Sequence record: CP071152.1
Reading direction: 5' to 3' (one strand)
Length of the DNA stretch: 64,000 nt
Source of the DNA: a plasmid
The notes beneath the pieces were generated by a model. It ran no database searches. It was not told where the DNA came from and saw only the letters and a list, made by a program, of their open reading frames with translations. Below are positions 37,677 to 59,225 of the stretch, in pieces (the stretch's first letter is position 1; each line of letters begins with the position of its first letter). The translations under genes were made by a program, and so were the position numbers.

Positions 37677-37699
37677 CTAGTCCTCGAAGGAGATCCGCA

Positions 37700-38110: not shown

Positions 38111-38132
38111 GGCTGACTCCTTAACTGCTAGA

Positions 38133-38369: not shown

Positions 38370-38424
38370 GTTGTACCTCGCGGTTCATGAGCGGGTGGCT
38401 CGCGGCGGAAAAAACAACTTTGAT

Positions 38425-38487
38425 TTATTACACCTGTATTTATTATACTAAACCCTGATGCCGATGCAATTTTTACAGGTGTAATAA
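38425..38487. promoter_or_regulatory. Perfect 14-bp inverted repeat TTATTACACCTGTA-N35-TACAGGTGTAATAA in a divergent promoter region
   Basis: Arms at 38425..38438 and 38474..38487. The right arm abuts the ATG of the RHH gene. Confidence 0.6.
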
Positions 38488-38712
38488 ATGCAAGAATCTG
38501 ACAGCAATCGGAGGCGTGGTGCCCCCCATAAACCCGATGAGATGAAGCGCACGGCCCGGTTGGGCGCGGTCCAGCTCACGGAAGAACAGCTGGCTACCTA
38601 TGAGCTGGTGGCCAAGATGGAAGGCAAGAGTAAGTCGCAGTGGATAAGGGACACTCTGGATGCTCGGTGCGAGCTGGCACTGCTCTTTGCGAAACAGCCC
38701 AAGCCAGAGTGA
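38488..38712 (+). CDS. Ribbon-helix-helix (CopG/Arc-like) small DNA-binding protein
   Basis: 74 aa; KSKSQWIRDTLD is typical of an RHH helix. Confidence 0.45.
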   Translation: MQESDSNRRRGAPHKPDEMKRTARLGAVQLTEEQLATYELVAKMEGKSKSQWIRDTLDARCELALLFAKQPKPE

Positions 38713-38866
38713 ACCCCAGAGCCGTCGCTCCCACGGGCAGGCCACGGGTTCCTTCAAGGACTGGCAGATGAGTAGCCATGTTCGCAGTCTAGCGGCATGG
38801 TCTGACAGGTTGCGGTGTGGGCGAACGCCCTCTGTGCCGGTGAGCAAGATTTGGATTAGGTAACCG

Positions 38867-39781: not shown

Positions 39782-39999
39782 CGAGAAGCTACTCCATAAT
39801 TAAACATTTCATGTAGGGACAATGTGACGATAGATTGTAGTGTAAGCAGGGCAAGCAGCTGGCTTTCCATGAAAGCTGAGTAGCTTGAGCAGAGGGGGCA
39901 AAATGCTGATGTTCGAGGAAGCTGAACTACACCGACGGTGTGCATTCTCGTCCAATAGACTACTGATGTGGCTTGCCACCTTTTTAAAGTTGTGACCAC

Positions 40000-41433
40000 T
40001 TGATTACGTTACTTGGGGAGATAGGTGATGGAATGTTCGTAACTGTCAAAGCCCGTGTTTATACCGATGTCACGGGTGCCTACACTGAGCTCCCCGCCTT
40101 GCTGACGCCGGCGGGAGTGCTGGAGTCGTTGCTTGACTACTGCCTCTATCGCAGCCACGACCGCAGTCTCACCTGGATGTCGAAGGTGAGCCGCTCTGTG
40201 CGGATGTTTCTTGAATATCTCCAGACCAACCCTGCCGAGCGTGATACCTACCACCTGTTCCAGAATTTCGCTCAGCGGCTCTACTCCGGCACCTTCGACC
40301 GTGAGATAGGGCTCGACCCCAGCGGGCTCTGCTGGGCGCCGCGGTCGCCGCAGGACGCCTCACACATCATCACCCACCTATCCGACTTCTTCGACTGGTT
40401 GGGCGAAATGCGTCCCGCATCGGCACAGGTCAATCCGCGCTACGCCGGTGGAGCTTTCGACCGGCAAACCGATGAAGCTGCCTACCAGTATCGGCGCAGC
40501 AAAGCGTTCTTAGGACATACCTGGGCGGCCAATGCGTCACCGAGCCAGACCAGGCATCGAATTAGAGGGCGGCGTCTGCCTAAGGTTGAACGCGGCGAGC
40601 CGCCAGCCTTTCCGGAGGCGCGTTTCGAGGAGCTCCTGGTTAAGGGATTCTGTGCTGCCGGACGCCAGGATTATCGGGGCATGCTTATCACCTTGTTATT
40701 GCACGGAGCTGGCTTCCGAGAGTCGGAGCCTTTCCACCTGTACATTCAGGATGTGTTGCCTGACCCTGCCAACCCAAATCAGGCCCTGGTTCGCATCCAC
40801 CATCCAAGTCATGGTGCTGCGCCAGCTGATTGGCGTGACGCGCAAGGACGCCCCCGCAAGGGCAATCGGGCGGAGTACCTCTCCCAGCAGTTTGGTCTGG
40901 CCCCTCGCACAGATCTTCTAGACCGTCGTCATGCTGGCTGGAAAGGCGGCATGCATGATGGGGCCTATTACAAGCAGGCGTACTGGCTCCTGCCGGAGTA
41001 TGGCGAGTGGTTTCTACAGCTGTGGCACCGCTATCTGGAGCAGGTGGCTCGCAGTGAACGCGGCCATCCCTTTGCTTTCATCAATCTCGTCCGCGAGCCT
41101 GTCGGTGCCATGTGCACACTCAACCAGTACAACAAGGCCCATGCAGCTGCCTGCGAACGTATCGGCCTCACGGTGAGCAAAGCTCTGGGTACAACGCCGC
41201 ATGGCCACCGCCACGCCTACGGTCGCCGACTCATGAACGCCGGTATCGACAAGGCTCTTATCCGTCGCTTTATGCATCACGCCTCCCTGGATAGTCAGGA
41301 GGTCTACACGCAAGCGAATAGCCGCGAGGCCTTGGCTGCATTGGATGTGGCTGCGCAGCGGCTACGAGGCGCGAAGGTGGGAGCTGCCGCTACGCCGAGC
41401 CTGTTGCCCGCGGACATCTTATTGAATGACTGA
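40000..41433 (+). CDS. Tyrosine recombinase, Tn554 TnpA-like (first of two tandem recombinases)
   Basis: Catalytic HGHRHAYGRRL (HxxR) and EVYTQ (Tyr) motifs lie near the C-terminus. TTG start at 40000; alternative ATG at 40033. Confidence 0.6.
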   Translation: MITLLGEIGDGMFVTVKARVYTDVTGAYTELPALLTPAGVLESLLDYCLYRSHDRSLTWMSKVSRSVRMFLEYLQTNPAERDTYHLFQNFAQRLYSGTFDREIGLDPSGLCWAPRSPQDASHIITHLSDFFDWLGEMRPASAQVNPRYAGGAFDRQTDEAAYQYRRSKAFLGHTWAANASPSQTRHRIRGRRLPKVERGEPPAFPEARFEELLVKGFCAAGRQDYRGMLITLLLHGAGFRESEPFHLYIQDVLPDPANPNQALVRIHHPSHGAAPADWRDAQGRPRKGNRAEYLSQQFGLAPRTDLLDRRHAGWKGGMHDGAYYKQAYWLLPEYGEWFLQLWHRYLEQVARSERGHPFAFINLVREPVGAMCTLNQYNKAHAAACERIGLTVSKALGTTPHGHRHAYGRRLMNAGIDKALIRRFMHHASLDSQEVYTQANSREALAALDVAAQRLRGAKVGAAATPSLLPADILLND

Positions 41434-41442
41434 GGATTTGCC

Positions 41443-44040
41443 ATGCCCAATAAGAAGAAAACAACTGCGGCCAGTGTATCTACGCGCCCTGTAACAAGGA
41501 AACCAGGGGTAAAGCGCGTCACGGACACATCCCTCGGCTGGGTTTCACGGGAATATCCGCAGCTCGAACCCTGGCGCATCCTTGCGATGGAGTGGCTAAA
41601 AGGGGAAACTCGCGGGGTCAGTTCGAGACTGCAAGCTCTATCGTCCTTTTTCGAGCGCTACCTTATCCAGCAGAGCCTACCGCTTGACCCGGCAGTGCTG
41701 CTGACGCGCGGCACGGTTCTGCCGGACTATTACCAGACCGCCTGCCCAGATTCGAGGGCTGGCATCACGTACAACAACTGCATCAACTCCTTCCTGCACT
41801 TTGTGCTGCTACGTGAGTTCAGTGTGCCCGGTGATGACGGTCAGCCGGTCATTTCGCAGGCCTTCCGGAACCCAGTGCTCTGGATGTCTAAGGGCGGCTT
41901 GCCTTGGCGCGACGAGAGCGTGCATTCGCCACTACCCTACGGCTACATTGATGAACTGCGCCAGATGTTGGCGGCGGGACCACACTTCCGGGACTGGTTG
42001 TGGGCACAAAACGCATTGGGTGCAGAAATTGGTCAGCGGGGACCCGGCGCTCCTGACTGGTTCGAGGTAACCGAAGCGCAGATTGACCGGAACGACCCGG
42101 ATTGCGTCTGGCGTGAACGCCCAATGCGGAACGGGGCGCGCCTGGAAATGTGGAGCCCGGTGCGCTGGGTCGCACTACTGGTGAAGCTCATACTGCCACT
42201 GCGTACTTCTCAGGTCCGCATGCTCGACTCAGGCGAGGCGGATACCTGGCGCTACGCAGACGGCGTGTGGGCATTGAACCCAAGCCGAATCGCACACGGT
42301 AGTGAGCGGCGCCCACTACACCAGGGGGTGTTTCGCCGTAGCGCCGCTCTGGCTGATGGCGAGGCGGTTTCGACTGTGCTCTACATCAACACTAACAAGA
42401 CCGCCGATATCACCAAGTCAGGCCCCGAGAAAGGCTATGTCCTACCTTGGTCCTCCGGCGGCCCGGCGCATCAGGATGTGTTCTACTGGCTGGAAAAACA
42501 GCGTAACTGGCAGGAAAAATACAATCCGGTATCGCGGCGTACATCTTGGTCTTCACTGGATGGACGCCACATCCAGGCGAAGAGCGAGGTGCAACTCGCA
42601 AGCTATCCGGATACTTGCTTCCTGTTCCGATCGCCGGAAGCCCGTGAGGGTGAACGTTATTTCCCACTTTCGGATAAAGTAATGTTCTCCAGTTGGTTTG
42701 CCCTGCTGGAAGCACTGGAATGGCGGCTAGCTGACCGAGGTGAGACTCATCGCAATGGCACGAAAATCCGCTTCCTTCCACCGCAAGAAGAGCGGCTCAG
42801 CTATCAAAGAACTCTCTTCCCCTTACACAGTCTGCGCGTCTCCCTCGTCACCGCGCTGGCCCTAGAAGGCCAAGTGCCGTTCCCTATCCTACAAAAGCTC
42901 GTCGGACACAGCCGCCTATTGATGACGCTGTACTACACCAAGCCCGGTGCAACACACATCCGCGACGTATTGCTCGGCGCTGCGGAACGGTTGGAGGCGG
43001 CCAAGGAAGAGGGCATTCAGACCTTCCTGCTAGACACCGAGTATGGGGTGCTCCTCGAACAGGCTATTTGTAACAGTGTGCCATCTCTGGCTGCCGCTAT
43101 TCCGCAACATCCCGCTGCACGTAACCCCGTGGGCTGGATGCCGATGCACCACGGTCTGTGCCTGGTCGGTGGCAACACCAGCGAAGGGGGAGACAATGGA
43201 GCTGTGGGCGGCTGCTACAACGGGGGCGCAATTATTATCAAGAGCACGACAAATGTTAACGCCAAATACGGGCCTGTCCCTGGCGGCAGTCGCAACTGTG
43301 TACGCTGTCGTTGGTTCGTAACTGCTCCGCAGCACCTACCAGCCTTGGCGGCCCACTTCAACACGCTGGCCTACCACTTCGACGAGACGCGCAACGCCTG
43401 CCTTGCCCGAGAAAACGACCTCCAGGCCCTGAAAAAGGACAGGGCTGAAGCAGAAGCGGCTGGCCAGTCATTCACCCGGCTAGATGCTGTCAGGCAAGCA
43501 GAGCGGCTTTGGGAGAGCACCATGAGGCGCTTTAGTGATTCGGCGGAAGACCTGGTTGCCTGCTGGCGGCTCATCGAGCGCTGCAAGGCTCTACTCGAAT
43601 CGCGCACTGGCGACAGCACGCAATTGGTGGCGGCTGGCACGTTATGCGATGTGCAGGCCGTCTTCGAGGAAACCGAGTCGGAGCTTCTGCAACTGGCTGG
43701 TGTCTGTGAGAGCGTCGAACTCTATCCAGACCTAGAGCCAGGCAAGGCGGTGTTTCGACGCAGCCAGTTGCTGGATACCGTCCTCTACCGCGACAAGTTG
43801 CCTCCTGTGTTCATGCTGCTGAGCGAACAGGAACAACTCCTCGCTGGTAACGCCTTTATGCGCCACCTAGCGCAGCAGATGAACCCGTCGAATCCGGCGA
43901 TCGGCCAACGTGAAGTTATTCGTCTGATGGATGCCGGTGAGCGTCTCAGTGCATACCTAGATCTCAACCTTGCAGCGCAGTTGCCTACATCCCGTCACAC
44001 CGCCGCGTTCCGGTCCGGGCCGACCCTGAAATGGAATTAA
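41443..44040 (+). CDS. Large tyrosine recombinase, Tn554 TnpB-like (865 aa)
   Basis: PLHSLRVSL (HxxR) and VGHSRLLMTLYYTK (catalytic Tyr) motifs. It starts 10 bp after the first recombinase. Confidence 0.55.
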   Translation: MPNKKKTTAASVSTRPVTRKPGVKRVTDTSLGWVSREYPQLEPWRILAMEWLKGETRGVSSRLQALSSFFERYLIQQSLPLDPAVLLTRGTVLPDYYQTACPDSRAGITYNNCINSFLHFVLLREFSVPGDDGQPVISQAFRNPVLWMSKGGLPWRDESVHSPLPYGYIDELRQMLAAGPHFRDWLWAQNALGAEIGQRGPGAPDWFEVTEAQIDRNDPDCVWRERPMRNGARLEMWSPVRWVALLVKLILPLRTSQVRMLDSGEADTWRYADGVWALNPSRIAHGSERRPLHQGVFRRSAALADGEAVSTVLYINTNKTADITKSGPEKGYVLPWSSGGPAHQDVFYWLEKQRNWQEKYNPVSRRTSWSSLDGRHIQAKSEVQLASYPDTCFLFRSPEAREGERYFPLSDKVMFSSWFALLEALEWRLADRGETHRNGTKIRFLPPQEERLSYQRTLFPLHSLRVSLVTALALEGQVPFPILQKLVGHSRLLMTLYYTKPGATHIRDVLLGAAERLEAAKEEGIQTFLLDTEYGVLLEQAICNSVPSLAAAIPQHPAARNPVGWMPMHHGLCLVGGNTSEGGDNGAVGGCYNGGAIIIKSTTNVNAKYGPVPGGSRNCVRCRWFVTAPQHLPALAAHFNTLAYHFDETRNACLARENDLQALKKDRAEAEAAGQSFTRLDAVRQAERLWESTMRRFSDSAEDLVACWRLIERCKALLESRTGDSTQLVAAGTLCDVQAVFEETESELLQLAGVCESVELYPDLEPGKAVFRRSQLLDTVLYRDKLPPVFMLLSEQEQLLAGNAFMRHLAQQMNPSNPAIGQREVIRLMDAGERLSAYLDLNLAAQLPTSRHTAAFRSGPTLKWN

Positions 44041-44702
44041 TCATGAGTAAAACAACAGATATTCACCCTGACGTCGTGTTGGAGTCGCTGCTTGCCAAGG
44101 CTGAGCGCTCGAACCGTCGAAACAACCTCATCAAGATGCATGAACTGTGTCGCAAGCAGCACGAGGTTGGGTCGCGTGACTTCTCCGTGTCAACCATCGG
44201 CCGTCTGGCTGAGGCCGATGGCATCATGAAAGGCCGTGCGCTCTACAACACCCAATCCGCCGACTACAAGGCTCTCATAGAGGTCTGGGCTGCTTACGCA
44301 GGTCCACCTGCCCCCAAGCCCACCAAGACGCTGGCCAGCCACGACTACCTGATGCGCATCGATGATCCGGCCATTCGTTCTATCATGCAGGCCATCGTCA
44401 CAGAGCGTGACAAACTCAAGGCGCAGCTCAACACCCTCAAGGCACACACACTGGTGAACGTGGACCGGCGGCCGTTAGGGGCAACTGTCACGTCCGCGAC
44501 TGGCACGCCGGTGGTTGTGCTTAAATTGTCCGCACAACTGACTCCATCTGAACGCGAGGCACTACAGAAAGCGGTGTCAGCAGACTACCTCGAAGATCGG
44601 GGTTTGAAGGAAGGCAGCCACGGTGAAATCGTTAACGAGCGCGGTCGCACAATATTCGAGGTTGGCTTTGCTTGGGCAATTCGCAAGGTGTTGGGTGACT
44701 GA
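44031..44702 (+). CDS. Tn554 TnpC-like small third protein (223 aa)
   Basis: Its start overlaps the TnpB-like stop. It is the last GC-rich gene before the AT-rich cargo. Confidence 0.4.
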   Translation: MELIMSKTTDIHPDVVLESLLAKAERSNRRNNLIKMHELCRKQHEVGSRDFSVSTIGRLAEADGIMKGRALYNTQSADYKALIEVWAAYAGPPAPKPTKTLASHDYLMRIDDPAIRSIMQAIVTERDKLKAQLNTLKAHTLVNVDRRPLGATVTSATGTPVVVLKLSAQLTPSEREALQKAVSADYLEDRGLKEGSHGEIVNERGRTIFEVGFAWAIRKVLGD

Positions 44703-45044
44703 CCCTTTGTGGGAGAGCAATAGATAATCATATTGAGAATTAAAGTACCATACTAAAATGGCAGTGCTCTCATCGGTACGCTGCCTTTTCTAAAACGTTC
44801 ATACCCCAAAACCATTCAGAGAAAATACTCATTCATTACCTGTTAGTGTGACTTTACCTTATAAAAGGTGATCTGAAAGTGTGTAGTGGGTTTCTGTCGT
44901 ATTAGATGGTTTGACTGCATTCTAATTCATGGGCTTTTGATTCAAGTGATGGAATAATTGTAAATTGCAAGCATATGAAATATGGCGCATCATGTGTGTG
45001 GAAGGTTACTCTGCGCCGTATAGGTAGGCATACAAAACTGGAGA

Positions 45045-46100
45045 GTGCTAATGCTTGTAAAGTATTATGGTTTGGTTTTCGTTCATAGAACCAATCGTTG
45101 GTCACCAAGAGTAGAATTTATATCAAACGGTTTATTTCGCATGACTCAGCCTAAATACCTTAATGATAAAGGGAGCGAGGCGAGACTATGGCCATATTTT
45201 AATGAGTTTTCACCTGCAGATTATGCATGGGCCAAAAAAGAACATGATAAAATGCAAACCGATCCTTCCTATGTCCCATCAAATGAAGAATTAGAAAACT
45301 TCTTTCTAAAACCGTGTGGCTCGCGCTATGGAGACCATTTCCCGCATATGCTAGATCAAGAAGGCTTCAACTCAATGGAAGATTATGATCGGGAGCAATT
45401 GACTCAAGCGGCTGAAAGAGTCAACTCATTTTTAGTGGAGGCATTAAGCTGCCAGTTAGGCATTTTATCTCTTTCAAAGTCTGACACAAATGAACTTATG
45501 TGGACATATTATGCTAGCGAAGGTAAGGGACTAGCTGTTACTTTCAATGAGAATCATGCATTTTTCAACCAGCTTCCCCCGAAAGATGTTAGTTATACTC
45601 CAGATAAAAGAGCTTCTCTTACATATTATAAAGGTATGATACGAATAAATGGTGCTCCGATAAAAAGCTTCCATGCTGCAGATTTAGGTAATCCATTAGG
45701 AGTTATGCGCTCTCTTAGTAGCAATGGTATTGATATAGTTGATTTTTCGGATCGACTGCTATATTCGAAAGCCAAACAATGGTCTTTTGAAGATGAGACT
45801 AGAATTGTATGCCCCCTTATGTTATGTGAAGAGAAAGTAGGGCCACTAGTACAACCAGACTTTGGAGTTGAATTACCTAATGAACTCTCCCCAATGTTCA
45901 AGAGCTACTCTGAGGTCAATCTAAAACGAATACCATTCGAGGCATTTGAGTCTATCATTTTTGGTTACAGTATGAGTGAATTAGACAAGTCTACTATCAC
46001 TGAACTGGTAAGGAAAAATGAAAACTTGTCCCATATAAAGTTACGCATAGCCAAACACAATATTTATGGCAACATTGAGATCAATGATCTCGTTGTGTAA
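45045..46100 (+). CDS. DUF2971-like protein (AT-rich cargo gene 1)
   Basis: 351 aa; about 38% GC against about 60% in the flanks. General DUF2971-like composition with no catalytic motif recognised. Confidence 0.35.
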   Translation: MLMLVKYYGLVFVHRTNRWSPRVEFISNGLFRMTQPKYLNDKGSEARLWPYFNEFSPADYAWAKKEHDKMQTDPSYVPSNEELENFFLKPCGSRYGDHFPHMLDQEGFNSMEDYDREQLTQAAERVNSFLVEALSCQLGILSLSKSDTNELMWTYYASEGKGLAVTFNENHAFFNQLPPKDVSYTPDKRASLTYYKGMIRINGAPIKSFHAADLGNPLGVMRSLSSNGIDIVDFSDRLLYSKAKQWSFEDETRIVCPLMLCEEKVGPLVQPDFGVELPNELSPMFKSYSEVNLKRIPFEAFESIIFGYSMSELDKSTITELVRKNENLSHIKLRIAKHNIYGNIEINDLVV

Positions 46101-46142
46101 GATGCTACTTTATTAGCAGAAATTTATCATATTTGAGGTGCT

Positions 46143-47150
46143 ATGTTTTATATTTTCCTTGATACCTGTGTTCTTTTAGATATTTCAACAAAAAAATATG
46201 ACCTTCCTTTGGTTTCTGCACTGGAAGAGTTGGTTGCATCGGGTGTGATTACACTTATACTTACCGACCTAGTTGTGGAAGAGTACGAGAGGAATAAGGA
46301 AGACGTAGCAAACAAGACTGCCAAAAGGTTGTCTCAAGAATTTAAACAAGTAAAAGTAATAGTAAGTGAATTTGCAGGCGATAAAAAAGCGGACACAATA
46401 GACGTATTAAATGACATCAATGCGCGTTTACCCCTGCTAACTGATGCCAACTATGCGACCATTCACAGAGTTGAAAGGCTTATCGAATCAGCAAAAAAAA
46501 TCAGTATTAGTGAACGTTCTAAAATAGCCGCAGTTCAGCGGGGCCTAGATAAAAGAGCGCCATTTCACATTAGTAAAAACTCTGTAGCTGATGCGGTCAT
46601 CATCGAACAATTTTATGAGTTCTCGCAGGGTGTCGATAGTGAGTCTGGTTGTTGTTTTTTCATAACCCACAATCACAATGACTTTTCTGCAAAGGATCAC
46701 CGTCAACCACATTCTGATTTTGGTAATATTTTTAACGACACGAGTGTTCTTTATTTCAATAATCTAGCATCAGCAATTAATGAAATTGACGAGAATTTTT
46801 TAGATGGTATTGAATTTGAGTATGACCACACAGAGGAAACCAGAGGCCTAAGAGAAATCCTAGATGCGATGGACGAACTAGTTGACAAAGTTTGGTATAA
46901 CAGGCACCAGAATCGCATGTGGGCTATTGAAAATGGCGAGATCGAAATTGTTCCTGAGGGTACTGAACGTTATGGTAATAATGTCATTCACGAGAATATC
47001 CTTAAAGGTGCTATGAAGTCTGCAAAACGTGTTGAAGACACCTATGACAACGTAGGGCCTTGGAGCGACTTTGAGTGGGGTATGATTAATGGAAAATTGT
47101 CTGCATTACGTTGGGTGCTAGGTGATGAATGGGATATGTTAGACACCTAA
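46143..47150 (+). CDS. PIN-like domain protein (DUF4935-like), AT-rich cargo gene 2
   Basis: The N-terminus FLDTCVLLD is a PIN-type acidic motif. 335 aa. Confidence 0.4.
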   Translation: MFYIFLDTCVLLDISTKKYDLPLVSALEELVASGVITLILTDLVVEEYERNKEDVANKTAKRLSQEFKQVKVIVSEFAGDKKADTIDVLNDINARLPLLTDANYATIHRVERLIESAKKISISERSKIAAVQRGLDKRAPFHISKNSVADAVIIEQFYEFSQGVDSESGCCFFITHNHNDFSAKDHRQPHSDFGNIFNDTSVLYFNNLASAINEIDENFLDGIEFEYDHTEETRGLREILDAMDELVDKVWYNRHQNRMWAIENGEIEIVPEGTERYGNNVIHENILKGAMKSAKRVEDTYDNVGPWSDFEWGMINGKLSALRWVLGDEWDMLDT

Positions 47151-47779
47151 GATATACTGGATCAATAACTAACTAAGGCTTCAATATACATTTTCTCATC
47201 TGAGGGTAGCGCGCTAGATCTTTAGATCTAACGCATTTCTATCCAAAATCGAGTTATGCTGAGTATGATAATTTATTCCTCTCCCCCCACTCTGTGGAGC
47301 TTACGAAGATCAGACTGTAATGCAATTGCTGGATTAGAAGCTGATCACTCCCAGATTGGCAACACCACCCTACAGGCCTATCAGAAAAATTTCGCGTTCC
47401 TAGAAGGTCTTCCTCTGACCGACCCGCAACGAGTGTGTTTATTGGGCGTGCGGGCCGACACACGCCAAAAGTTCAGGGATAATCGGTAACGCAGCGCCAG
47501 AACCACTCATCTGTCAGCCAATTAAACCTTAATAGAGCGCAGGTCAAGTATCGGAGAGCTTATCTTGGAAGACCTGCTGCAGGTTATCCGCGAAGAGGCA
47601 GGCTTTTACTCGTTTGGTCAGTAGCTAAAAACCGGGCTTGGCTTTGTAAGGTGACAGAATAACCATCGCTGCGATCACATTCGTAGCAAACACCAAACGG
47701 TAAGCTCATCTGATCGTGACGAAGAACCATTGCATAATTATTTTTTCGAGTTGGACCTTGACAAGGAAAGTAGAAAAAG

Positions 47780-50377
47780 ATGTCTGAACCAGCGAATGAA
47801 ACAGCCGGAATGAATGATTTTGAAATGTGGTTGAACGACCGTAATGGTTGGCTTCAGACCGCAGCCAGACAACTCATCGACAACAAGAGGTTACCGAATG
47901 GGGGCGAGCTTGCAGAGCTGGTTCGACTTTGCAAACTGGAGGCCATCAAGCAGAGTGACCCTGGATTTCTGAAGGTGGCCCCAGGAGCATTATCTGCTGG
48001 CGCGGTACGACGGGTTGTGCGGGTCGAAGAAGTAACCCAAGTCTTCGGGGTTAACGCGATTAAGCATGGAGCATCTCTACCATTCGGAACGGGCAGTCTG
48101 ACGGTCATCTACGGGCAAAATGGTTCGGGGAAAAGTGGTTTTGCTCGTCTGCTCAAACAGCTGTGTGGATCTCGTTCACGGGACGAAATCCACCCCAACG
48201 TATTCAACGATAAAGAGCATGCTTGCAGTGCTCAATGCCGAATCACTATTGATGGCAATTCCCGAGATATCAATTGGCATCCTGGTGCAGAGCCCCATGC
48301 GATGCTCAAGTACGCCCAAGTATTTGATTCGAAGGCAGCAACTCAGTACATGGGGCGCACTGAGTCAAGCTATGAGCCGAGCAGCATGCGGTTCATCTCC
48401 ATGCTCATTCAAATTTCGGGCATGGTTTCTGATGAGCTGGGGCGGGAGAAGGGAAAGCTCGTTAGGGCACTTCCACAGTTCCCGGGTGATCTCTCAGAAA
48501 CCGCTGAGAAAGCCTGGTTCTCCTCTCTCAAAGCCTCCGTTTCTGCTGAGCAGGTCGAGGCGTATTGCCGGTATGGGAAAGATTTGGACGACGAGCGGGT
48601 CAAGGCTGAGGCTCTGCTTGCGGAAAAAGACATCGCGGGTCGCTTGGTTACCATTGGCAAGGAAAATGTTGCCACTGAAAGCATCAAGCAGGCAATGAAA
48701 CTGTTGAAAGAAGGTCTAACCGACGAGAAGGCTGATGAGTTGTCGAAGGCGAGAGTGTCGGCGGTTGCAGCGAGAAAGGCGGCCAACGAAGTTGCACAGC
48801 AGGCATTCGCGAATGTTCCTCTCCAAGGCGTGGGTGATACGGCCTGGAAACTTATGTGGGAGCAGGCGCGCGCCTATTCCGTTGCTCATGCATACCATGG
48901 TCACGAATTTCCCGTTACTTCAGACGGTGCGCACTGCGTGCTCTGTCAGCAAGAACTTACGGCTGAGGGCGCCACTCGGCTCAAAAGCTTCGAGGCTTTC
49001 GTCACCGCAGGTCTCGAGACTGCGGCGAAAACTGCGGAGGCCATCAGTTCGGCACTGATCGCGAAGGTAATTCAGGTGCCTTCGATTGAAGACTGGATTG
49101 CGCGCCTGGCTCAGTTGCAGTTCGACGAAGCCACGGCCCGTGCTTGGTATGAGTCGTTGAAGTCTAGGCGAGCACAGTTTGTGGCGTGCGCTGCCGTGGG
49201 AGATATCTCTGCGTTCGATTGGGTTCCTATCGATCAGGCACTGGAAAAACGAGCTGCCGACTTGCTTGCTGAGAAGACCAGCCTCGCCCAGCTGCAGCAA
49301 GATGGGCAGCGGCTGCAGGTCGAGAAGCGAGTGAAGCAACTCAAAGCACTTCAGTGGCTGTCCCAGAACAAACCTGCGATTCTCGCAGAGCGTGAGCGGC
49401 TAGTAGCTGTCGATCTTCTGGATAAAGCTACTAAGTTAACGGCCACCAATTCGTTGACAACCAAGCGCAACGAGCTTGGACGTACCGAGCTTGATGCTGG
49501 ATATCAGGCCCGCTTTGATGCGGAGTTGAAGTCCCTTGGTGGACGGCGGTTGCCAGTTGTGCCGCAGAGCAGGGCTCAAGGAAAGGGAGTTATCACATTT
49601 GGGCTCGCCCTTGTCGGTGCTCGGGCTGGCTTCACTCCTGATGTCGTACTCAGTGAAGGCGAAACCCGCATTGTTGCACTGGCGGCATTCCTGGCCGACA
49701 CAACTGGTTCGAACCAGCTTGCCCCCTTCATCTTTGACGACCCGATTTCGTCTTTAGATCAGGATTTCGAGGAGAGGGTTGTTACCCGGCTTGTCGAGTT
49801 GGCGAAGACCCGGCAGGTCATCATCTTCACTCACCGCCTCTCGTTGATTGCACTCGTTGAGGCTGTAATCAAAAAACACGGTGAGAATCCGGCTAACGAG
49901 AAAATTACCTACACCGTGCAGTCGCTTCGACGGCTGGATAAGGTTTCGGGAATTCTGGCGCAACACAGTCTGCGGGATGCCAAGCCCGATAAGGCACTTA
50001 ATGCGGTTAGAGATCACGTCATCCCGAGGCTCAAAAAACATCAGGCCGATGCCGACGCCGACGGTTATGACCTCACCGTGAAGAGCGCCTGCAGTGATTT
50101 CCGGATCATCTTGGAACGAACAGTGGAGCTCATCCTCTTGAATGACGTAGTTATTCGTTTCAGACGGGACGTCATGACTAAAGGAAAGCTGAGAGGTGTT
50201 GCCAAGGTGATGGCAGAGGACTGCGATTTTATCGACCGGTTAATGACCAAGTATTCAGTCTATGAGCACTCGCAGGCAGATGAGCTACCTCAGGTTCCGG
50301 TCGAACTCGATGAGTTCGAGCGAGATGTATTGGAACTCATTGCATGGATGGCTCAATTCAAGGAGCGATCAAGCTAG
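47780..50377 (+). CDS. RloC-like ABC/SMC-type ATPase with a coiled-coil CxxC zinc hook and a C-terminal putative nuclease region (865 aa)
   Basis: Walker A GQNGSGKSG near residue 115; HCVLCQQEL near residue 390 within predicted coiled coil; D-loop/H-loop IIFTHRLSL near residue 690; C-terminal RFRRD ... YEHSQ. Confidence 0.5.
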   Translation: MSEPANETAGMNDFEMWLNDRNGWLQTAARQLIDNKRLPNGGELAELVRLCKLEAIKQSDPGFLKVAPGALSAGAVRRVVRVEEVTQVFGVNAIKHGASLPFGTGSLTVIYGQNGSGKSGFARLLKQLCGSRSRDEIHPNVFNDKEHACSAQCRITIDGNSRDINWHPGAEPHAMLKYAQVFDSKAATQYMGRTESSYEPSSMRFISMLIQISGMVSDELGREKGKLVRALPQFPGDLSETAEKAWFSSLKASVSAEQVEAYCRYGKDLDDERVKAEALLAEKDIAGRLVTIGKENVATESIKQAMKLLKEGLTDEKADELSKARVSAVAARKAANEVAQQAFANVPLQGVGDTAWKLMWEQARAYSVAHAYHGHEFPVTSDGAHCVLCQQELTAEGATRLKSFEAFVTAGLETAAKTAEAISSALIAKVIQVPSIEDWIARLAQLQFDEATARAWYESLKSRRAQFVACAAVGDISAFDWVPIDQALEKRAADLLAEKTSLAQLQQDGQRLQVEKRVKQLKALQWLSQNKPAILAERERLVAVDLLDKATKLTATNSLTTKRNELGRTELDAGYQARFDAELKSLGGRRLPVVPQSRAQGKGVITFGLALVGARAGFTPDVVLSEGETRIVALAAFLADTTGSNQLAPFIFDDPISSLDQDFEERVVTRLVELAKTRQVIIFTHRLSLIALVEAVIKKHGENPANEKITYTVQSLRRLDKVSGILAQHSLRDAKPDKALNAVRDHVIPRLKKHQADADADGYDLTVKSACSDFRIILERTVELILLNDVVIRFRRDVMTKGKLRGVAKVMAEDCDFIDRLMTKYSVYEHSQADELPQVPVELDEFERDVLELIAWMAQFKERSS

Positions 50378-50501
50378 ACGGAGTGATTTTGCTCAAGCAA
50401 AGGGGCCAGCGGCGTTTTTCAAGATAGTTGTCGCGCAAAGCTGTTTTAAGCAGCCTCTTTTTGCTCCGGCTCGGGTTTCTCGGGCCGCTCCGGATTTAGC
50501 A

Positions 50502-51714
50502 TCACGGCACCGATAGGTGTCCAGTCTCGCGTCTTGCCACTCCACCTCGCTGGGTGTTGTGCTCGGGCGGCCTGGTACACAGCATCCCGTTTCGCCAGCA
50601 GGGCTTTATCGTCACCCGATGCCGCTCGTTGGGTGTGACGAAGCGGATACGGCTATGCCGGTGCTCTTCGTTATACCAGGCCATAAAGTCGCGCACCCAC
50701 TCCCTGGCCGCTTCCAGACTGGCAAAGCCGTCTGATGGCCACTGCGGACAGTACTTCAGCGTCCTGAACAATGACTCCGAGTACGGATTATCGTTGCTGA
50801 CCCGAGGCCGTCCCCCGCGAGGGCGTGACACCCAGGTCATGCATCTTGGTCAGCAGCGTGACTGACTTCATTGGCGCGCCGTTGTCCGAGTGCAAGACCA
50901 GCGGCTGCTTCCAGCACTGCTCGCGGATGATGCTCCGTTGCAGCAACGCCGCCGCCCGTTCACCGCACTCTTGCTCATGCACTTCCCAGCCCACCCCTTT
51001 GCGGCTGTAGATGTCCTCTATCAGATAGAGGTAGTAATACTGGCCGCGCACGAGTGACGGCAAGTAGGTGATATCCCAGGACCACACTTGATTGGGCCCA
51101 GTCGCGGTATGGCTGGTTGGTACCGGCACATGACGCGGTGGCTGGCTCCGGCCACGCCTGTGCTGCTGGTCAGCCGCCCGCAAGATGCGATAGAAGCTCG
51201 ACTCACTGGCCAAGTAGCGCCCCTGGTCGGCCAGCCGTGGCACAATTTGACTCGGCGGCAACGAGGCGAACTCCTGGCTATTGCAGACGTCCAGCACGGC
51301 CTGCCGCTCCTCTGGGCTCAATGCATGAGCAGGTATGGAACGAACCGCATCCGGTCGCCTATCGGCACTCAGCTCAGGGCCGGCCAACCAGCGCTGGAGC
51401 GTGCGCAGACTCAGCCCCAACACCTCGGCCGCAGGATGCTTGCGGGCGCCAGCTTCAAGCGCTTCGCGCCACCATGCAACGTATTGCTGCCGCTCTGGCA
51501 ACGAGGTCAGTTGTCCTCGTCGACGTTGCTCCAGTAGGCATCGAGCTTTTTTTGCAATATCAGCAGAGCTGCCGCCTCGGCCAGGGCCTTGTCTTTGCGC
51601 CGCAGCTCTTGCTCCAGTTGCCGGATACGCTTCTTGTCCGCTTTGGCCTGTGCCTTCTCCGCCTGTTGTAAGGTACGAGCGGATTGCTGGCCCAGAATAC
51701 AGGCTTGGCGCCAT
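50502..51714 (-). pseudogene. IS3-family OrfB (DDE integrase core) with a +1 frameshift in a C5/G5 run at 50822..50826
   Basis: ORFs 50788..51714 (DITYLP ... LHSDNGAPMKS) and 50502..50840 (NPYSESLFRTLK) belong to one rve protein. Removing one G gives the contiguous GVTPSRGRPRVSNDNPYSE. Confidence 0.7.
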
Positions 51715-52007
51715 TGCTGGACTTGCTCGGGATAGAGACCCTTACGGCGGCAGTACTCACTGAGTTCAATCTCGGAAAGCGCAGCGGTTTCCAGCACGAC
51801 GGCGAACTTGGCCTCGGCGGGCCATTCATCGGTCAGTTTGTTGTCCCCGGGCACAGGAGACCCTCCGTCTTTGGCGTGTTTGCGCCAATTATACAGAGTG
51901 ACCTCGCTGATGTTTTCCTGCCGAGCCAACTCGGCCACCGACATATTGATGGGCGGCAGCAGCTTCTTGAGCAAAGCAGCCTTGCGCTCACTTGAATAAC
52001 GAGCCAT
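51507..52007 (-). CDS. IS3-family OrfA (HTH + leucine zipper) ending at an A-AAA-AAG slippery site
   Basis: MARYSSERKAALLKK ... ISEVTLYNWRKH; the C-terminus ...LILQKKLDAYW is encoded over CAAAAAAAGCTC. Confidence 0.75.
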   Translation of the reverse strand: MARYSSERKAALLKKLLPPINMSVAELARQENISEVTLYNWRKHAKDGGSPVPGDNKLTDEWPAEAKFAVVLETAALSEIELSEYCRRKGLYPEQVQQWRQACILGQQSARTLQQAEKAQAKADKKRIRQLEQELRRKDKALAEAAALLILQKKLDAYWSNVDEDN

Positions 52008-52384
52008 TCGACACTCTTTATCCGCCCCCGGTCTTCACATTTAGATTATTCAGATTAGGCGACAACTATTCTGACACCGGGGGCCAGTGATAACTAGATC
52101 TATATATGCGATACGGGCCGAGAAAAGCGCCGACAATGCCGTCGGCGCCTGAAAGTTATGATGTATTAAAATGCATTTTTACATATACAGATAAAGCGTA
52201 GGAAACTCTTTGGTAGCAAGTCTTCTGGCTGACATATCTCCTAACTATGCTCAATTAGGGTATAAGTTTCATCCTTGCAAATAAAGTGTCATCCCAACGG
52301 GATGAAAGCATTGAATTTGCTGGGCTGTAGCCGTTCTTACTGCTCAAATCACTACCCAGCTCAGGGTTCCACTGGCCAGTTCGA

Positions 52385-52570
52385 GCCACCCCGGTGTACT
52401 TGGCGCTTGGCCACCCCGGTTTACCTGTTGAGAGACATCTCAAATGCCGCGGTCAAAGTCCCCGAGGGAGATCCAGACGCCATGCCGGGAGTTTCAGCAC
52501 CGTCGGTTGACCTGGCCAGCACCGGTTTTGGGGATGAGTTCCGGGGTTGAGCAGCTGGTTGATTTCCACC
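52385..52570. repeat. Dispersed copy A of the GC-rich ~180-bp repeat family (same family as the 33.8-34.75 kb array)
   Basis: About 80% identical to 53640..53810 (GAGACATCTCA..TGCCGCGGTCA...GGGAGTTTCAGCAC/GCGTC.GTTGACCTGGCCAG...GAGYTCCGGGGTTGAGC). Confidence 0.7.
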
Positions 52571-52762
52571 AAGGACATCGGTGCTCGAGAGCGGACATAA
52601 GTACCCAGGTCAGCCTGCTGGCCACATCCCGGTACCAACCTACTCACGGAATTTGGCCTCTGTCGCAAATTCATCAAGAGGGCCCCTCTACTCATTGCGT
52701 GGCAGTGGGCAACGCGGGTACACATGAGTCGCCCACCACTGCGACCTACCAAGGACTGCGCT

Positions 52763-53521
52763 ATGACGATGTTTGTCTCCTACCCTTTCCGAGTCCCCGC
52801 CACCAATGCACCGCTGTACTGGCAGTCAGCCTATGAGCCGACCCATCGCTTCACCTATCTGCAATTTCATCCCGAACCGAACGAAGATGGAATTGAGATA
52901 GATGCCTCTTACGCTATGGAAGAGGATTTCTCGGTATCGGTCTTCAACGAACGCTATCAGGGCACCTCACTGTGCTTCCCGATAATCCCGAATGCCTCCC
53001 TGCCCAGCATCAAGGCGTTGGCCCACGACGCCAAGCTGGAGGCCATGCTACAGCGCATCAGCGATGCTTACCTTTCGGAGTTCCATGAAGGTCAGTGGAG
53101 GGGAAGTTTCCCCGGTCTGCCGGAGGGATTTGAGAAAGAGGTGATCGACCATCTGGCCGAGGTGCTATCGGAAGATGCGCTGAAAATAGTCCCAGCCAGC
53201 CAGTACGTCCGAGGTGGTAACCTGGAACTGTTTATTTTATGTGATCTGCTGTCCTTTGAGGACTATGCAGAAAAGCTGGTTCATCTGGCTGAGCATGAAG
53301 GGGTGCTCCTTGTGGGGGATGTGGTGGATGAAGTTGCCAAGTGGTGCGCCGAAGAGGTCGAATATGACATTGAGACGTACCTAGAACCAGACGAGACGCT
53401 GCACCTGTTGATCTTCCTCCTGAAACGGCATGACAAGGCGAAATACGGGTACCTGCTCGATCTCTTCAAAGCCCACTACCCCGAAGTAGAAGTGCCGTTG
53501 TTCGCTAAGACCTACTCATAG
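52763..53521 (+). CDS. Hypothetical protein (252 aa) flanked by the two dispersed repeat copies
   Basis: An AAGGA RBS lies 7 nt before ATG 52763. Coding-like composition with no motif recognised. Confidence 0.45.
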   Translation: MTMFVSYPFRVPATNAPLYWQSAYEPTHRFTYLQFHPEPNEDGIEIDASYAMEEDFSVSVFNERYQGTSLCFPIIPNASLPSIKALAHDAKLEAMLQRISDAYLSEFHEGQWRGSFPGLPEGFEKEVIDHLAEVLSEDALKIVPASQYVRGGNLELFILCDLLSFEDYAEKLVHLAEHEGVLLVGDVVDEVAKWCAEEVEYDIETYLEPDETLHLLIFLLKRHDKAKYGYLLDLFKAHYPEVEVPLFAKTYS

Positions 53522-53559: not shown

Positions 53560-53830
53560 ACACGCCGGGCTGATCTGGTGATGGTTGTCCTCGGTGGAAT
53601 GCCACCTCCCGACGGCGGGCACGGGTCCGGCTGAGGAGGTTGGCCACCGCCGGTGTACCTGGTGAGGAGACATCTCAGTGCCGCGGTCATTGTCCTTCGT
53701 GCAACTCAAGAAGCCCTGCAGGGAGTTTCAGCAGCGTCAGTTGACCTGGCCAGTGCCCGTTTTTTGGATGAGCTCCGGGGTTGAGCGGCGGGTGGATGTC
53801 CCTCATTGGCCCTGAAAGTCCCAGATGTCA
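53560..53830. repeat. Dispersed copy B of the GC-rich repeat family
   Basis: See copy A. It also contains GGTTGTCCTCGGTGG and GGATGTCCCTCATTGG motif variants. Confidence 0.7.
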
Positions 53831-53947
53831 TGGGCAGCTGCGTGCGAGCTGCACCTGGCTGGGCCCGGCGACGCGGGATCCCGCCCCTCCCGGTCCTTCA
53901 AGGACAAATTGGTGGTCGGCCCGGCGCTCCAGTATCCGCCCACCTGG

Positions 53948-53986
53948 GTGCCGGTGCCGGTGCCGGTGCCGGTGCCGGTGCCGGTG
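53948..53986. repeat. Hexanucleotide microsatellite (GTGCCG) x6.5
   Basis: Perfect tandem GTGCCGGTGCCG... run. It lies in a region without a convincing ORF. Confidence 0.85.
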
Positions 53987-54350
53987 GACGATAGTCGACC
54001 TGTTGGTGGTTCGACATGCCGGTTGTCCGGCACCTCTTTGAAAATATGTGGGTCGCCGCGCAGAAATGATGATGAGTCTTGATTTACGTTGTCGCCGAAG
54101 CCGCGTCGCCGCGCCATATGAGGTCGAGTGACGCCGGTTGCCTCCGCCAGAATTTGATCCAGCTGTAAGGATTCGAAGATGAAAATCAAAGTGATCTGCG
54201 AGTACGCTTGGGAAGTAGTGAGATCGAAAAAGAGAGCACTCTTCACCGCTGAGATGTTTCGTAAACAGGGGTACGGACATTCCACCTTCCAGATCATGGA
54301 TGACGATGGTATGGTATGGGTAATCACAGGTATTACCTTGGAGTACCACC

Positions 54351-54638
54351 ATGCCCACACAATCCAAACCGGTCTCGATCAAACTCGACGCCGATACCCA
54401 GGAACGCATCAAACGCCTGGCAACCTCCCGCGAACGCTCAGCCCATTGGCTCATGCGCGAAGCCATCAGCCAGTATGTCGAGCGCGAAGAACTGCGCGAG
54501 ACCTTCCACCGCGACACTCTGGAGGCCTGGCAGGAGTTCCAGGAGACCGGCCAGTATGCCACCGCTCAAGATGTGGATCAGTGGCTAGCCTCTTGGGGCA
54601 CTGATGCCGAAGGAGCGCCTCCTGCATGCCACCAGTGA
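54351..54638 (+). CDS. Type II antitoxin, ParD/CopG-like RHH
   Basis: MPTQSKPVSIKLDADTQERIKRLATSRERSAHWLMREAISQYVERE is an RHH antitoxin N-terminus. It overlaps the toxin start by 13 bp. Confidence 0.7.
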   Translation: MPTQSKPVSIKLDADTQERIKRLATSRERSAHWLMREAISQYVEREELRETFHRDTLEAWQEFQETGQYATAQDVDQWLASWGTDAEGAPPACHQ

Positions 54639-54919
54639 TCTTTGCCCCTGCCGCCCTGCGAGACCTGCAACGCCTACGTGAATTCCTGCGCCCTAAAAGC
54701 CCGCAGGTCGCACAGCGGGCCGCAACAACAATCCAGCTGTCCCTACGCCAGCTCGCAGCCCAACCCTCAATGGGCCGCCCCATAGAAGGACTGCCAGAGG
54801 CGTTTCGTGAGTGGGTGATCCCCTTTGGTGACAGCGGCTATTTAGCCCGCTATCGCATTGAACCGGATGTCATCGTGGTGCTCGCTGTCCGCCATCAACG
54901 CGAAGTTGGCTACTCATGA
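54626..54919 (+). CDS. Type II toxin, ParE/RelE family
   Basis: 97 aa; ...REWVIPFGDSGYLARYRIEPDVIVVLAVRHQREVGY is a ParE/RelE-like C-terminus. Confidence 0.7.
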   Translation: MPPVIFAPAALRDLQRLREFLRPKSPQVAQRAATTIQLSLRQLAAQPSMGRPIEGLPEAFREWVIPFGDSGYLARYRIEPDVIVVLAVRHQREVGYS

Positions 54920-55131
54920 TGTAAGAGACAACGTCAGGCCAAACACCTCGTTCCGCAATGTGTACCAGGGGCGTCCGATTTGGGATGTTATTGGCTGATC
55001 GATTTGACATCCTCCCCCACCTTAGCGCTTCGCGTCACAGGAGGGGGATTCCCATTACTGGGTGATAGCTGCTCGCGCAGTACCGGGTTCCTGCTTCATC
55101 GGGCGGCCTGATTGCACCACGCCTCCACAGG

Positions 55132-56275
55132 CTAAAACGGCGTGTCCGCCGCTAAAATATTGCGAGCGCCGTTCACATCGGCGTTCGCCTCATAACCACA
55201 CGCAGCGCATTTAAACTGGCTTTGCGTCTGGCGGTTATCCTTCGCAGTATGCCCACAACAGGCGCACTGCTGGCTCGTGTAGGCCGGGTTTATCGCCAAC
55301 ACCTGACCGCCTCGCCATGCCTGCTTATATTCGAGCTGGCGGCGCAGCTCAAACCAGCCCTGATCTAATATCGAACGATTCAGCCCTGATTTTGCCCGGA
55401 CGTTGCGCCCCGGCTGGCTGGTCGTGCCCGCTGCTGATTTTGACATGCTGGCAACCTTCAAATCCTCAATGACGATCATCGCGTGGTTTTTGCTGATAGT
55501 CGTTGTGACCTTGTGAAGGTAATCGCGGCGGGTATTGGCGATATGTGAGTGCAGCCGCTGGATCTTGGCTTTTGTTTCTTCCAGTTGCTGCTGAACTTTA
55601 CCTTTTGCTCAACTGGCGTTGGAGCCTTGCCAGCTTGGTCTGATTGGTTTTGAAGCTGTTGACGGGCTCAAACACCGTGCCATCTGACAGGGTTGCGAGC
55701 TTGGCGATCCCGCATCTAGCCCGACCATTGAGCCGGAGGGTGAATTGGCTCAAGCGTCTCCTGCTCGACCTGAAAGGAGATATACCAGTGCCCGGCTGCT
55801 TGGCTGACGGTCGCGTTTTAATTTTCCTTCAACTGGCTGGGACTGACGGAACTTGACCCACGCCAGCCCGGCAGGCAGCTTCACTCGACCCTTTTCAAGG
55901 CGGCAATACTTGTCGAAGTTGACGAACCGGATAGCGTCGCGGTTGTCGCTTTTTTCTTGAATACGGGTGCCTTGGCGGCGAGTTTCTTATCAAAGCAGCG
56001 CATCCACGCGCCATGCAAATCCTTGAGCTTCTGCTGGAGGTTGTCGGTATATGCCTCGGCCAGAAAGGCCATTTCTGGGTCTTTCTTCCAACTGGTGAGC
56101 ATCCTGTTCAGCTCAAAGGCAGAAGGCAGTTTTCGCCAGCATCCAGAATGCGTTTGGTTTCTGCCAGCCCGTGATTCCAGACATAACGAGCACAACCGCC
56201 CAACTGGCGCAGGCGTTGCGCTTGTTGTTCGGTCGGTTCGAGTCGGAATTTGTAGGCTTTCAGAATTTGCATTTA
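55132..56275 (-). pseudogene. IS200/IS605-family TnpB (RuvC-like, zinc finger) decayed by several frameshifts
   Basis: The C-terminal piece NPAYTSQQCACCGHTAKDNRQTQSQFKCAACGYEANADVNGARNI lies at 55132..55479. The N-terminal piece at 55881..56195 is in a different frame. The gene is divergent from tnpA. Confidence 0.6.
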
Positions 56276-56317
56276 GCGCTCAGTGTGTAGCATTATTGCC
56301 ATATCTATTAAGCCCGA

Positions 56318-59199: not shown

Positions 59200-59225
59200 G
59201 CTGCCCTGCCGCTCTCTTGTTCACT

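Follow-up and report, generated by a model that had tools for sequence, protein, structure and literature searches.

Within the window analysed here, a stretch of 64,000 nucleotides of plasmid DNA (sequence record CP071152.1, one strand, 5' to 3'), positions 44703 to 50377 hold three co-oriented open reading frames (ORFs) of 349/351, 335 and 865 amino acids (aa), hereafter genes 1, 2 and 3. They are located, as described in a first-pass annotation of this DNA, between a recombinase trio (GmtY/Z/X) and an insertion sequence (IS), ISAs20. That annotation read the three genes, a DUF2971-like protein, a PIN-like protein and an RloC-like zinc-hook ATPase, as one undescribed candidate defence or abortive-infection module. 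The analysis reported here bears out that all three are plausible defence or abortive-infection genes in mobile-island cargo; the triplet itself is a juxtaposition, not one system. The cargo probably (at a probability of about 0.75) consists of three stacked single-gene candidates for anti-phage defence or abortive infection, each mobile independently of the others. This estimate is joint with two further statements, namely that a Gamma-Mobile-Trio (GMT) island on an Aeromonas MOBH megaplasmid carries the region as cargo, and that genes 1 and 2 arrived together, in a low-GC cassette of 2.5 kb, from a Vibrio/Shewanella-like pool and gene 3 separately from a Pseudomonas-like pool. The principal features are the following (ART, ADP-ribosyltransferase; GC, guanine-cytosine content):

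45051..46100, plus strand: gene 1, DUF2971 protein of 349 aa, PADLOC PDC-S31 family; predicted ART-like effector
46143..47150, plus strand: gene 2, PIN_12/DUF4935 protein of 335 aa; N-terminal PIN nuclease domain and conserved C-terminal domain
44719..47280, plus strand: low-GC (~38%) two-gene cassette made up of genes 1 and 2, ~330 bp upstream and ~130 bp downstream
47281..47740, no strand: spacer or junction between the two modules, unmatched in related cassette loci (blastn) and without an Rfam match
47780..50377, plus strand: gene 3, RloC-superfamily (PDC-S06) SMC/Rad50-like ABC ATPase of 865 aa with a zinc hook and a C-terminal four-helix domain

Probable origin of the three genes as two modules

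Hundreds of full-length homologues were found for each of the three genes, which are thus considered real. Their GC content is 0.38-0.39 across 45-47 kb (genes 1 and 2) and 0.54-0.56 across 48-50 kb (gene 3), on a plasmid background of ~0.55, and a gap of 630 bp separates gene 2 from gene 3. In blastn searches the cassette is matched contiguously by marine metagenome contigs (88.6% identity), a conjugative plasmid of Vibrio cyclitrophicus (90%) and Shewanella sp. HN-41 (81.5%), while gene 3 is matched by Pseudomonas mandelii over 47779-50361 only (92.6%) and by E. coli over 47741-50349 only (77%). The GC jump and these DNA homology breakpoints (44719-47280 and ~47741/47779-50361) therefore point to two independently acquired modules. 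The 460-bp spacer at 47281-47740 is of intermediate GC and contains only short ORFs of 69-77 aa, and it may be a junction or what is left of a former cargo gene. An Rfam scan of 44-53 kb gave zero matches, and a promoter/terminator scan gave counts not above those of shuffled sequence.

Gene 3 homologues are monocistronic and have unrelated neighbours in P. mandelii (93% aa identity), E. coli (80%), E. coli A38, Vibrio cholerae (77%) and Pseudomonas protegens (53%), and no conserved neighbour was found for them in eight contexts. The homologue on plasmid pPAD8 of P. aeruginosa, which shows 94.7% DNA identity, is also alone. On this plasmid (NZ_CP061074.2, 1684-9599) it is the only gene directly downstream of a non-GMT three-recombinase module that consists of a 405-aa tyrosine recombinase, a 504-aa integrase_1 (NF041502), a 663-aa integrase and a 145-aa ORF, and the same defence gene thus rides two unrelated multi-recombinase elements. 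Among 21 genome loci with gene 1 homologues, gene 2 is adjacent in Shewanella HN-41 only and gene 3 lies within 6 kb in none; the Klebsiella pneumoniae copy adjoins an unrelated HEC-04-type ATPase, and in 23/23 viral loci of IMG/VR gene 1 is alone. Gene 2 orthologues (~64-87% aa identity) have differing neighbours, never DUF2971, on plasmids of Photobacterium damselae, Vibrio coralliilyticus, Shewanella xiamenensis and Photobacterium toruni, in a Tn7-like element and in Vreelandella.

In a tally over ~90 loci, not all of them independent of each other, gene 1 occurs alone in 50, gene 2 alone in 17, gene 3 alone in 16, genes 1 and 2 together in 5 and all three genes in 2, both of the latter being copies of one Aeromonas island. 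The first-pass annotation had itself staked its module of DUF2971, PIN and RloC-like ATPase on the co-occurrence of the three genes in other genomes, and across these loci no such co-conservation is seen. A single co-functional, undescribed module would agree with the co-orientation and adjacency of the genes in mobile-island cargo and with the fact that each belongs to a defence-associated family. However, the triplet is known from one island only, common to four Aeromonas plasmids at 99.9-100% identity, the gap between genes 2 and 3 coincides with the change from 38% to 55% GC, and gene 3 homologues (53-95% identity) never have DUF2971 or PIN_12 neighbours. A three-gene system is thus extremely improbable.

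Gene families, motifs and predicted structures

The ORF of gene 1 (45045-46100) gives 351 aa from a GTG codon, and the ATG at 45051 gives 349 aa. The latter is likely the true start because 349 aa matches both the homologue lengths and the annotation of an identical plasmid by the Prokaryotic Genome Annotation Pipeline (PGAP). The DUF2971-like character that the first-pass annotation had read from its composition is confirmed by matches to Pfam PF11185 (DUF2971) and to the PADLOC single-gene candidate PDC-S31 (E 7e-18), and the protein also matches phrog_1762 (E 1.4e-51). Residues Y156, E249 and E251 are invariant in 30 homologues. In a 2025 survey (PMC12522546), DUF2971 proteins are predicted to be ART-like and related to DarT/AbiGi, and an ExE motif and a Tyr under strict conservation are described for them. 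Y156 and E249-x-E251 of gene 1 would correspond to the motif II Tyr and the motif III ExE of this predicted ART core. A sequence search of the PDB returned zero relatives of gene 1. Relatives with 48-74% identity, which match phrog_1762, are common on IMG/VR viral contigs (many of ~30-37 kb), never with gene 2; the gene 1 family behaves like a prophage-borne moron.

Gene 2, the start of which reads MFYIFLDTCVLLD, had been called PIN-type from its opening acidic motif, and this assignment holds: it matches Pfam PF16289 (PIN_12, formerly DUF4935) over model positions 1-172 of 172 (E 1.3e-28). Among its acidic residues, E47 and D150 do not vary, and at least 90% of sequences keep D7 and D180. No separate family model matches the C-terminal half (~150 residues), which shows strong conservation, and a PDB sequence search with gene 2 gave zero matches. 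DUF4935 genes are described as "usually mono-cistrons" (PMC5499597). One member, Cosus (Brc24), is reported to be an integron cassette of a single gene that carries a PIN12 domain and blocks T7, protection being lost in point mutants of the domain (preprint 10.1101/2024.07.02.601719). Brc24, rebuilt to ~210 residues from supplementary DNA recovered by optical character recognition (OCR), matches PF16289 with E 1.9e-27. The trees of gene 1 and gene 2 disagree. A further feature is found 3' of gene 2:

47151..47280, plus strand: conserved 3' region that moves with gene 2 (alignment A5, seven loci), with an 11-nt inverted repeat at 47211-47234

About 110 nt of this region are kept in most loci and comprise a variable stem (here 47211-47234) followed by a motif like TTTTGTCCAAAA. 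The region could be a terminator or a degenerate attC-like site. A search of 47151-47280 for an attC site, as expected of gene 2 as an integron cassette, found the 11-nt inverted repeat only and no convincing R''/R' boxes.

The elements of gene 3 can be located as follows:

48113..48136, plus strand: Walker A, residues 112-119; G112, N114, G117 and K118 kept in at least 95% of 96 representatives
48935..48946, plus strand: CxxC zinc-hook motif C386-V-L-C389 at the midpoint of the helical insert 201-585; both Cys 100% invariant (96 sequences)
49652..49834, plus strand: ABC signature S625-E-G-E628, Walker B D653-D654 and H-loop H685; invariant columns
49871..50374, plus strand: C-terminal domain, residues 698-865; four-helix HEPN-like bundle, predicted RNase effector

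Gene 3 matches the PADLOC PDC-S06 model PDLC04893 with E=0 and 1118 bits, its residues 11-864 aligning with positions 5-860 of the 862 in the model. It also matches AAA_13 and SMC_N in Pfam and, weakly, the LmuB and mad3 models. The sequence motifs reported by the first-pass annotation are all present (GQNGSGKSG at 111-119, HCVLCQQEL at 385-393, IIFTHRLSL at 681-689, RFRRD at 793-797 and YEHSQ at 828-832). In a first set of 34 homologues (47-93% identity), Walker A, the signature, Walker B, the H-loop and C386/C389 are invariant. A profile of the C-terminal 166 residues was then searched against 1.8 billion cluster representatives and retrieved 1249 proteins at E<1e-3, in nearly all of which the match is the C-terminus of a protein of 840-880 aa. 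In 96 of these, with 28-45% identity to gene 3, the ATPase motifs are kept in at least 95%, and C386, C389, R775, E779, E783, R793, D814, S826 and H830 are 100% invariant. As to the RFRRD...YEHSQ region singled out earlier, the D of RFRRD is unconserved; the conserved triad candidates are R775, E779 and H830. An RFRRD...H triad was rejected as the catalytic one since D797 varies among S, A, D and E while R775, E779 and H830 do not vary. The 865-aa clade occurs widely in Pseudomonas, with sporadic members in E. coli, Vibrio and Klebsiella. A tblastn search of gene 3 in 50,697 phage records gave no match, and a phage origin of gene 3 was rejected on this ground.

The AlphaFold2 model of gene 3 (mean predicted local distance difference test score, pLDDT, 81.7) comprises ~75 residues of N-terminal helices, a split ABC head, an all-helical insert and a four-helix C-terminal domain. 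The long coiled-coil stretch with a CxxC that had been predicted from the sequence is present as this helical insert, with the CxxC central in a short beta-knuckle between helices H354-371 and H395-409, but the insert is ~385 residues long (201-585) and not ~270. Foldseek places the model close to the heads of SMC, Rad50 and Lamassu LmuB proteins (E 1e-9 to 1e-6), and a PDB sequence search returned generic ABC heads only. The C-domain modelled alone reaches a pLDDT of 77; a Foldseek search with it gave nothing significant, 13 of the top 50 weak matches being HEPN. Residues 1-77 (47780-48010) are helical, have conserved W17 and W24 and no Pfam match, and are kept across the 865-aa clade and without counterpart in the aligned RloC-type proteins. 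They may be a sensor or partner-binding module.

RloC proteins are defined by ABC motifs, a coiled-coil/CxxC insert, a length of 658-897 aa and a C-proximal Arg-X3-Glu-X36-52-His triad (PMC2610378). All four features are found in gene 3, the triad being R775-x3-E779-x50-H830, which constitutes a match at the level of motifs. The hook region of Geobacillus kaustophilus RloC, taken from a supplementary alignment, was used as tblastn query against plasmids and yielded five full-length RloC-type proteins of 737-827 aa, which carry H-x6-CxFC and R-x3-E-x40-S-H. PADLOC assigns 5/5 of these proteins to PDC-S06 (PDLC04887, 04897 and 04894; E down to 0), and 4/5 match its PrrC model (best E 8e-15), with the nuclease domain included in the member shown. 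Because all five RloC-type proteins fall in PDC-S06, this label can be read as PADLOC's name for the RloC superfamily. In hhalign, the gene 3 family aligns with the five proteins at 97.8% probability (E 7e-13) over residues 383-695, that is, from the CxxC via the second arm, signature and Walker B to the H-loop, with the gene 3 CxxC on the RloC CxFC. A hidden Markov model (HMM) of the RloC hook block, built from the OCR-recovered supplementary alignment, gave gene 3 0.3 bits, a score equalled by 29 of 2000 shuffles. Gene 3 is a distinct clade of the RloC superfamily in which homology of the hook and the ATPase is demonstrated by sequence comparison. The RloC architecture proposed by the first-pass annotation thus stands for the split ABC ATPase, the CxxC helical insert and a C-terminal domain with Arg-x3-Glu...His, and falls short at the C-domain, for which homology to RloC/PrrC was undetected. 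This domain would be an RloC/HEPN nuclease that has diverged very far, or else a replacement in which the Arg-Glu-His arrangement persists.

Alternative readings and proposed modes of action

A number of observations weigh against the reading of the cargo as three single-gene defence candidates, and those on genes 1 and 2 bear on a rival in which these two form a true two-gene system. In such a system an ART-like DUF2971 protein and a PIN_12 nuclease would work together, for instance with one as the sensor for the other or with one modulating the other as toxin; both would be transcribed from the promoter of gene 1, and gene 3 would be separate. The two genes are arranged alike and lie 42-45 nt apart in four independent settings (the Aeromonas GMT island, the V. 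cyclitrophicus plasmid, marine metagenome contigs and Shewanella HN-41). The paired gene 1 sequences form a tight clade (85-89% identity; nearest unpaired sequence at most 74%) that is followed by gene 2 in 4/4 of these contexts, though the gene 2 partners come from two sub-lineages, the Shewanella gene 2 being only 80% identical to the other paired ones. This clade may benefit from a downstream gene 2. Moreover, no more than 16-23 bp upstream of the ATG belong to the conserved gene 2 module, which would therefore lack a promoter of its own, and functional or transcriptional coupling of genes 1 and 2 may thus exist. Against a two-gene system, gene 1 homologues of at most 74% identity (~50 loci) are all without gene 2 and the other gene 2 orthologues (17 loci) all without gene 1, both families have validated single-gene members, and a promoter-like site, with a weak match to the consensus, lies just before gene 2 (46075-46103). 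In addition, paired gene 2 sequences are not monophyletic: that of Shewanella HN-41 is 94% identical to the unpaired gene 2 of the P. toruni plasmid, and homology between the two loci breaks 23 bp before the gene 2 ATG, in the intergenic spacer (46120-46143 in the window). The position of this breakpoint and the 94% identity suggest the exchange of a promoter-less gene 2 module, and the overall pattern fits the shuffling of such a short module. Cassette mobility is weak evidence for the pair, and a genuine two-gene system is considered unlikely.

The remaining contrary points concern the functional assignments. No published experiment was found on the three proteins or on any PDC-S06 or PDC-S31 member. 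The Pfam match of gene 1 is a narrow pass (24.2 bits for a cut-off of 22), and no direct similarity between gene 2 and Cosus was obtained by tblastn or by searching the gene 2 family HMM against OCR-damaged brc24 DNA. For the gene 3 C-domain there is no Pfam match, hhalign of its profile against the five RloC-type proteins (shallow alignments) gives 0.4% probability, and the PADLOC PrrC model covers the ATPase/Walker B part of gene 3 only (residues 641-697, E 4e-4). The Arg position of the canonical HEPN Rx4-6H motif (824) is not conserved (K/R/E), and the fold likens to HEPN proteins no better than to designed helical bundles. The genes might not be anti-phage, but addiction or stabilisation toxins for the plasmid or island, or, for gene 3, an SMC/Rad50-like protein for DNA handling (anti-plasmid or repair) without RNase activity. 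A role of this kind would agree with the resemblance of gene 3 to SMC, Rad50 and Lamassu LmuB heads and its weak LmuB and mad3 model matches, with the assignment of the C-domain as a nuclease by motifs only, and with the presence of the three genes on plasmids and islands beside toxin-antitoxin pairs. However, the neighbourhoods of the homologues are defence-island-like (PDC-S15/FRG, HEC-04, restriction enzymes, a PLD anti-phage protein and a type IIG restriction-modification (R-M) system), and gene 1 relatives are common in prophage-like contigs, as is typical of defence morons. R775, E779 and H830 are, furthermore, 100% invariant in a family diverged to 28% identity, which argues for catalysis over a structural role. 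A function unrelated to phage is therefore quite improbable. Doubtful, at a level comparable to that of the two-gene system, is also that either the DUF2971-PIN_12 cassette is an undescribed interdependent two-enzyme system with interchangeable gene 2 alleles, or the gene 3 clade swapped the RloC nuclease for an unrelated four-helix RNase that converged on R-E-H. If the RloC nuclease has indeed been replaced, gene 3 would be an RloC-like sensor with a new effector or target.

Under the preferred reading of three single-gene candidates, a mode of action can be proposed for each by analogy. Gene 1 would be a DarT/AbiGi-related HYE-type ART-like toxin that, through Y156 and E249-x-E251, ADP-ribosylates nucleic acid or protein once infection has been sensed, as has been proposed for Aristaios, a validated single-gene abortive-infection system formed by a 316-aa DUF2971 protein of a Lactococcus plasmid (PMC11381338). 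Gene 2 would be a metal-dependent nuclease acting via D7, E47, D150 and D180 and gated by its C-terminal domain as sensor or regulator (cf. Cosus). For gene 3, RloC and PrrC biology (PMC2610378; PMC3710099) suggests that the zinc hook would dimerise the protein and that the ATPase would sense a phage-induced DNA or nucleotide signal. The ATPase would then release the C-domain as a metal-independent RNase, probably acting on tRNA anticodon loops, which would stop translation and abort the infection.

Carrier island, significance and known systems

The carrier and its surroundings include the following features:

40054..41433, plus strand: gmtY, tyrosine recombinase of GMT, left part of the island (NCBIfam recomb_GmtY equivalog, E 1.7e-157; start as in the PGAP annotation of the identical plasmid)
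41443..44040, plus strand: gmtZ, VPA1269 family integrase (NCBIfam integrase_GmtZ, E 2.6e-295; Pfam Integrase_2, E 1.7e-119)
44043..44702, plus strand: gmtX (NCBIfam GmtX equivalog, E 8.2e-70; also in the annotation of the identical plasmid)
50405..52090, minus strand: ISAs20, IS3 family, 99.6-99.8% identical to copies on many Aeromonas plasmids (Pfam rve and HTH_Tnp_1)
58330-59199: RepB/Rep3 replication initiator, in the downstream stretch 53800-59200

The segment 44719-47280 is 100% identical to the A. hydrophila plasmid pMCR5_045096 and to an A. allosaccharophila plasmid, and 99.9% identical to two A. salmonicida plasmids. The flanks 37000-39990 and 47281-53000 (minus ISAs20) show 99.8-100% identity to the former two. 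The window is therefore assigned to an Aeromonas MOBH megaplasmid of this type. The annotation of pMCR5_045096 gives the order gmtY, VPA1269 family protein, gmtX, DUF2971 domain-containing, PIN domain-containing and AAA family ATPase. An IS21-like ISAs27 stands directly upstream of gmtY on that plasmid (6824-9167) and is not present in the window (~39800-40000), while A. salmonicida pA has no annotated gmtY or gmtZ, two IS110-family transposase genes upstream of gmtX, and the three cargo genes intact. ISAs20 is inserted 27 bp past the gene 3 stop and belongs to none of the cargo modules; its insertion is recent, since the site is empty in pMCR5_045096 and A. salmonicida pA. Another IS3-family element lies ~240 bp downstream of the gene 3 homologue of E. 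coli, probably by coincidence.

The left flank of the GMT island was seen only in plasmids that already carry the island, with no empty site among the plasmid matches. On the right, homology with A. salmonicida pA stops at ~52267, and this position (within 52223-52353) may mark the right border of the island or be a scar left by some other element. Copies of the 45-bp segment 52223-52267 are found beside the IS4-like ISApu2 on further Aeromonas plasmids. Downstream, 53800-59200 (cargo or backbone) contains, in part as judged from the annotation of pMCR5_045096, a CopG/RelE toxin-antitoxin pair, an IS200/IS605 ISAs26 tnpA with a TnpB gene, and a TPR protein.

The term "undescribed" used in the first-pass annotation is not retained, as genes 3 and 1 fall under the existing PADLOC entries PDC-S06 and PDC-S31, respectively, and Cosus and Aristaios are validated single-gene relatives of the PIN_12 and DUF2971 kinds. 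All components belong to catalogued families (PDC-S06/RloC superfamily, PDC-S31/DUF2971 and PIN_12), the GMT island that carries them has been described as well, and the locus is ordinary defence-island cargo. The new points are modest: the equation of PDC-S06 with the RloC superfamily, an 865-aa clade with invariant catalytic candidates and a recurrent DUF2971-PIN_12 cassette. The main value of the analysis lies in annotation and in a guard against over-reading, because genes are not made into a system by lying side by side in a defence or GMT island. The label of likely single-gene defence modules can replace that of "hypothetical" for three genes of an Aeromonas mcr-5-type megaplasmid, a plasmid of clinical relevance. 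Among the side results, the most useful is that PDC-S06, unexplained in PADLOC, includes classical RloC-type proteins. Moreover, the hook is retained in the 865-aa clade, and its divergent C-domain bears an invariant Arg-Glu-His triad, which provides K118, C386/C389 and R775/E779/H830 as mutational targets for the tRNA-nuclease question.

Compared with described GMT islands, GmtY/Z/X are likewise found at one end with defence cargo downstream, but the island is on an Aeromonas plasmid. According to the text of the GMT paper (Mahata et al.), defence systems occur in ~40% of GMT islands and RloC in one of them (VPaI-6), and none of the described cargo proteins GAPS1-13 is reported in that text as DUF2971, PIN_12 or AAA_13. 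Like Aristaios, which was compared by description, and PDC-S31, gene 1 is a lone DUF2971 protein of similar size (349 and 316 aa for gene 1 and Aristaios, respectively) that keeps the Tyr and ExE; it differs from Aristaios in host phylum and in that a PIN_12 gene always follows the gene in its clade. Gene 2 and Cosus share a full-model PF16289 match and are both mobile single genes in short cassettes, whereas direct BLAST or family-HMM similarity is lacking in a comparison that covers ~210 Brc24 residues.

PrrC, the tRNA-Lys anticodon nuclease of the type Ic R-M locus EcoprrI, shares with gene 3 an ABC-type NTPase joined to a C-terminal RNase domain and an Arg-Glu-His triad (both predicted in gene 3), as well as the logic of abortive infection. 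However, PrrC proteins have 341-416 aa, contain no coiled coil or zinc hook and are always within an hsd locus. Also among the closest known systems is RloC, a wobble-nucleotide-excising anticodon nuclease (Davidov and Kaufmann, 2008). Gene 3 differs from it in matching another PDC-S06 sub-model (PDLC04893), with weak cross-matches to the RloC-type sub-models, in a C-domain for which neither sequence nor profile comparison detects similarity to the nuclease domain of RloC/PrrC, in the Glu instead of Ser that precedes the His, in a hook of the form CVLC[QH]Q instead of H-x6-CxFC, and in an extra helical N-terminus of ~75 residues with no family match. In common with RloC, in turn, it has the ABC motifs, the long helical insert and the central invariant CxxC in register, a size within 658-897 aa and a triad spacing within X36-52, and it is likewise monocistronic, found in mobile and defence contexts and placed in the same PADLOC group.

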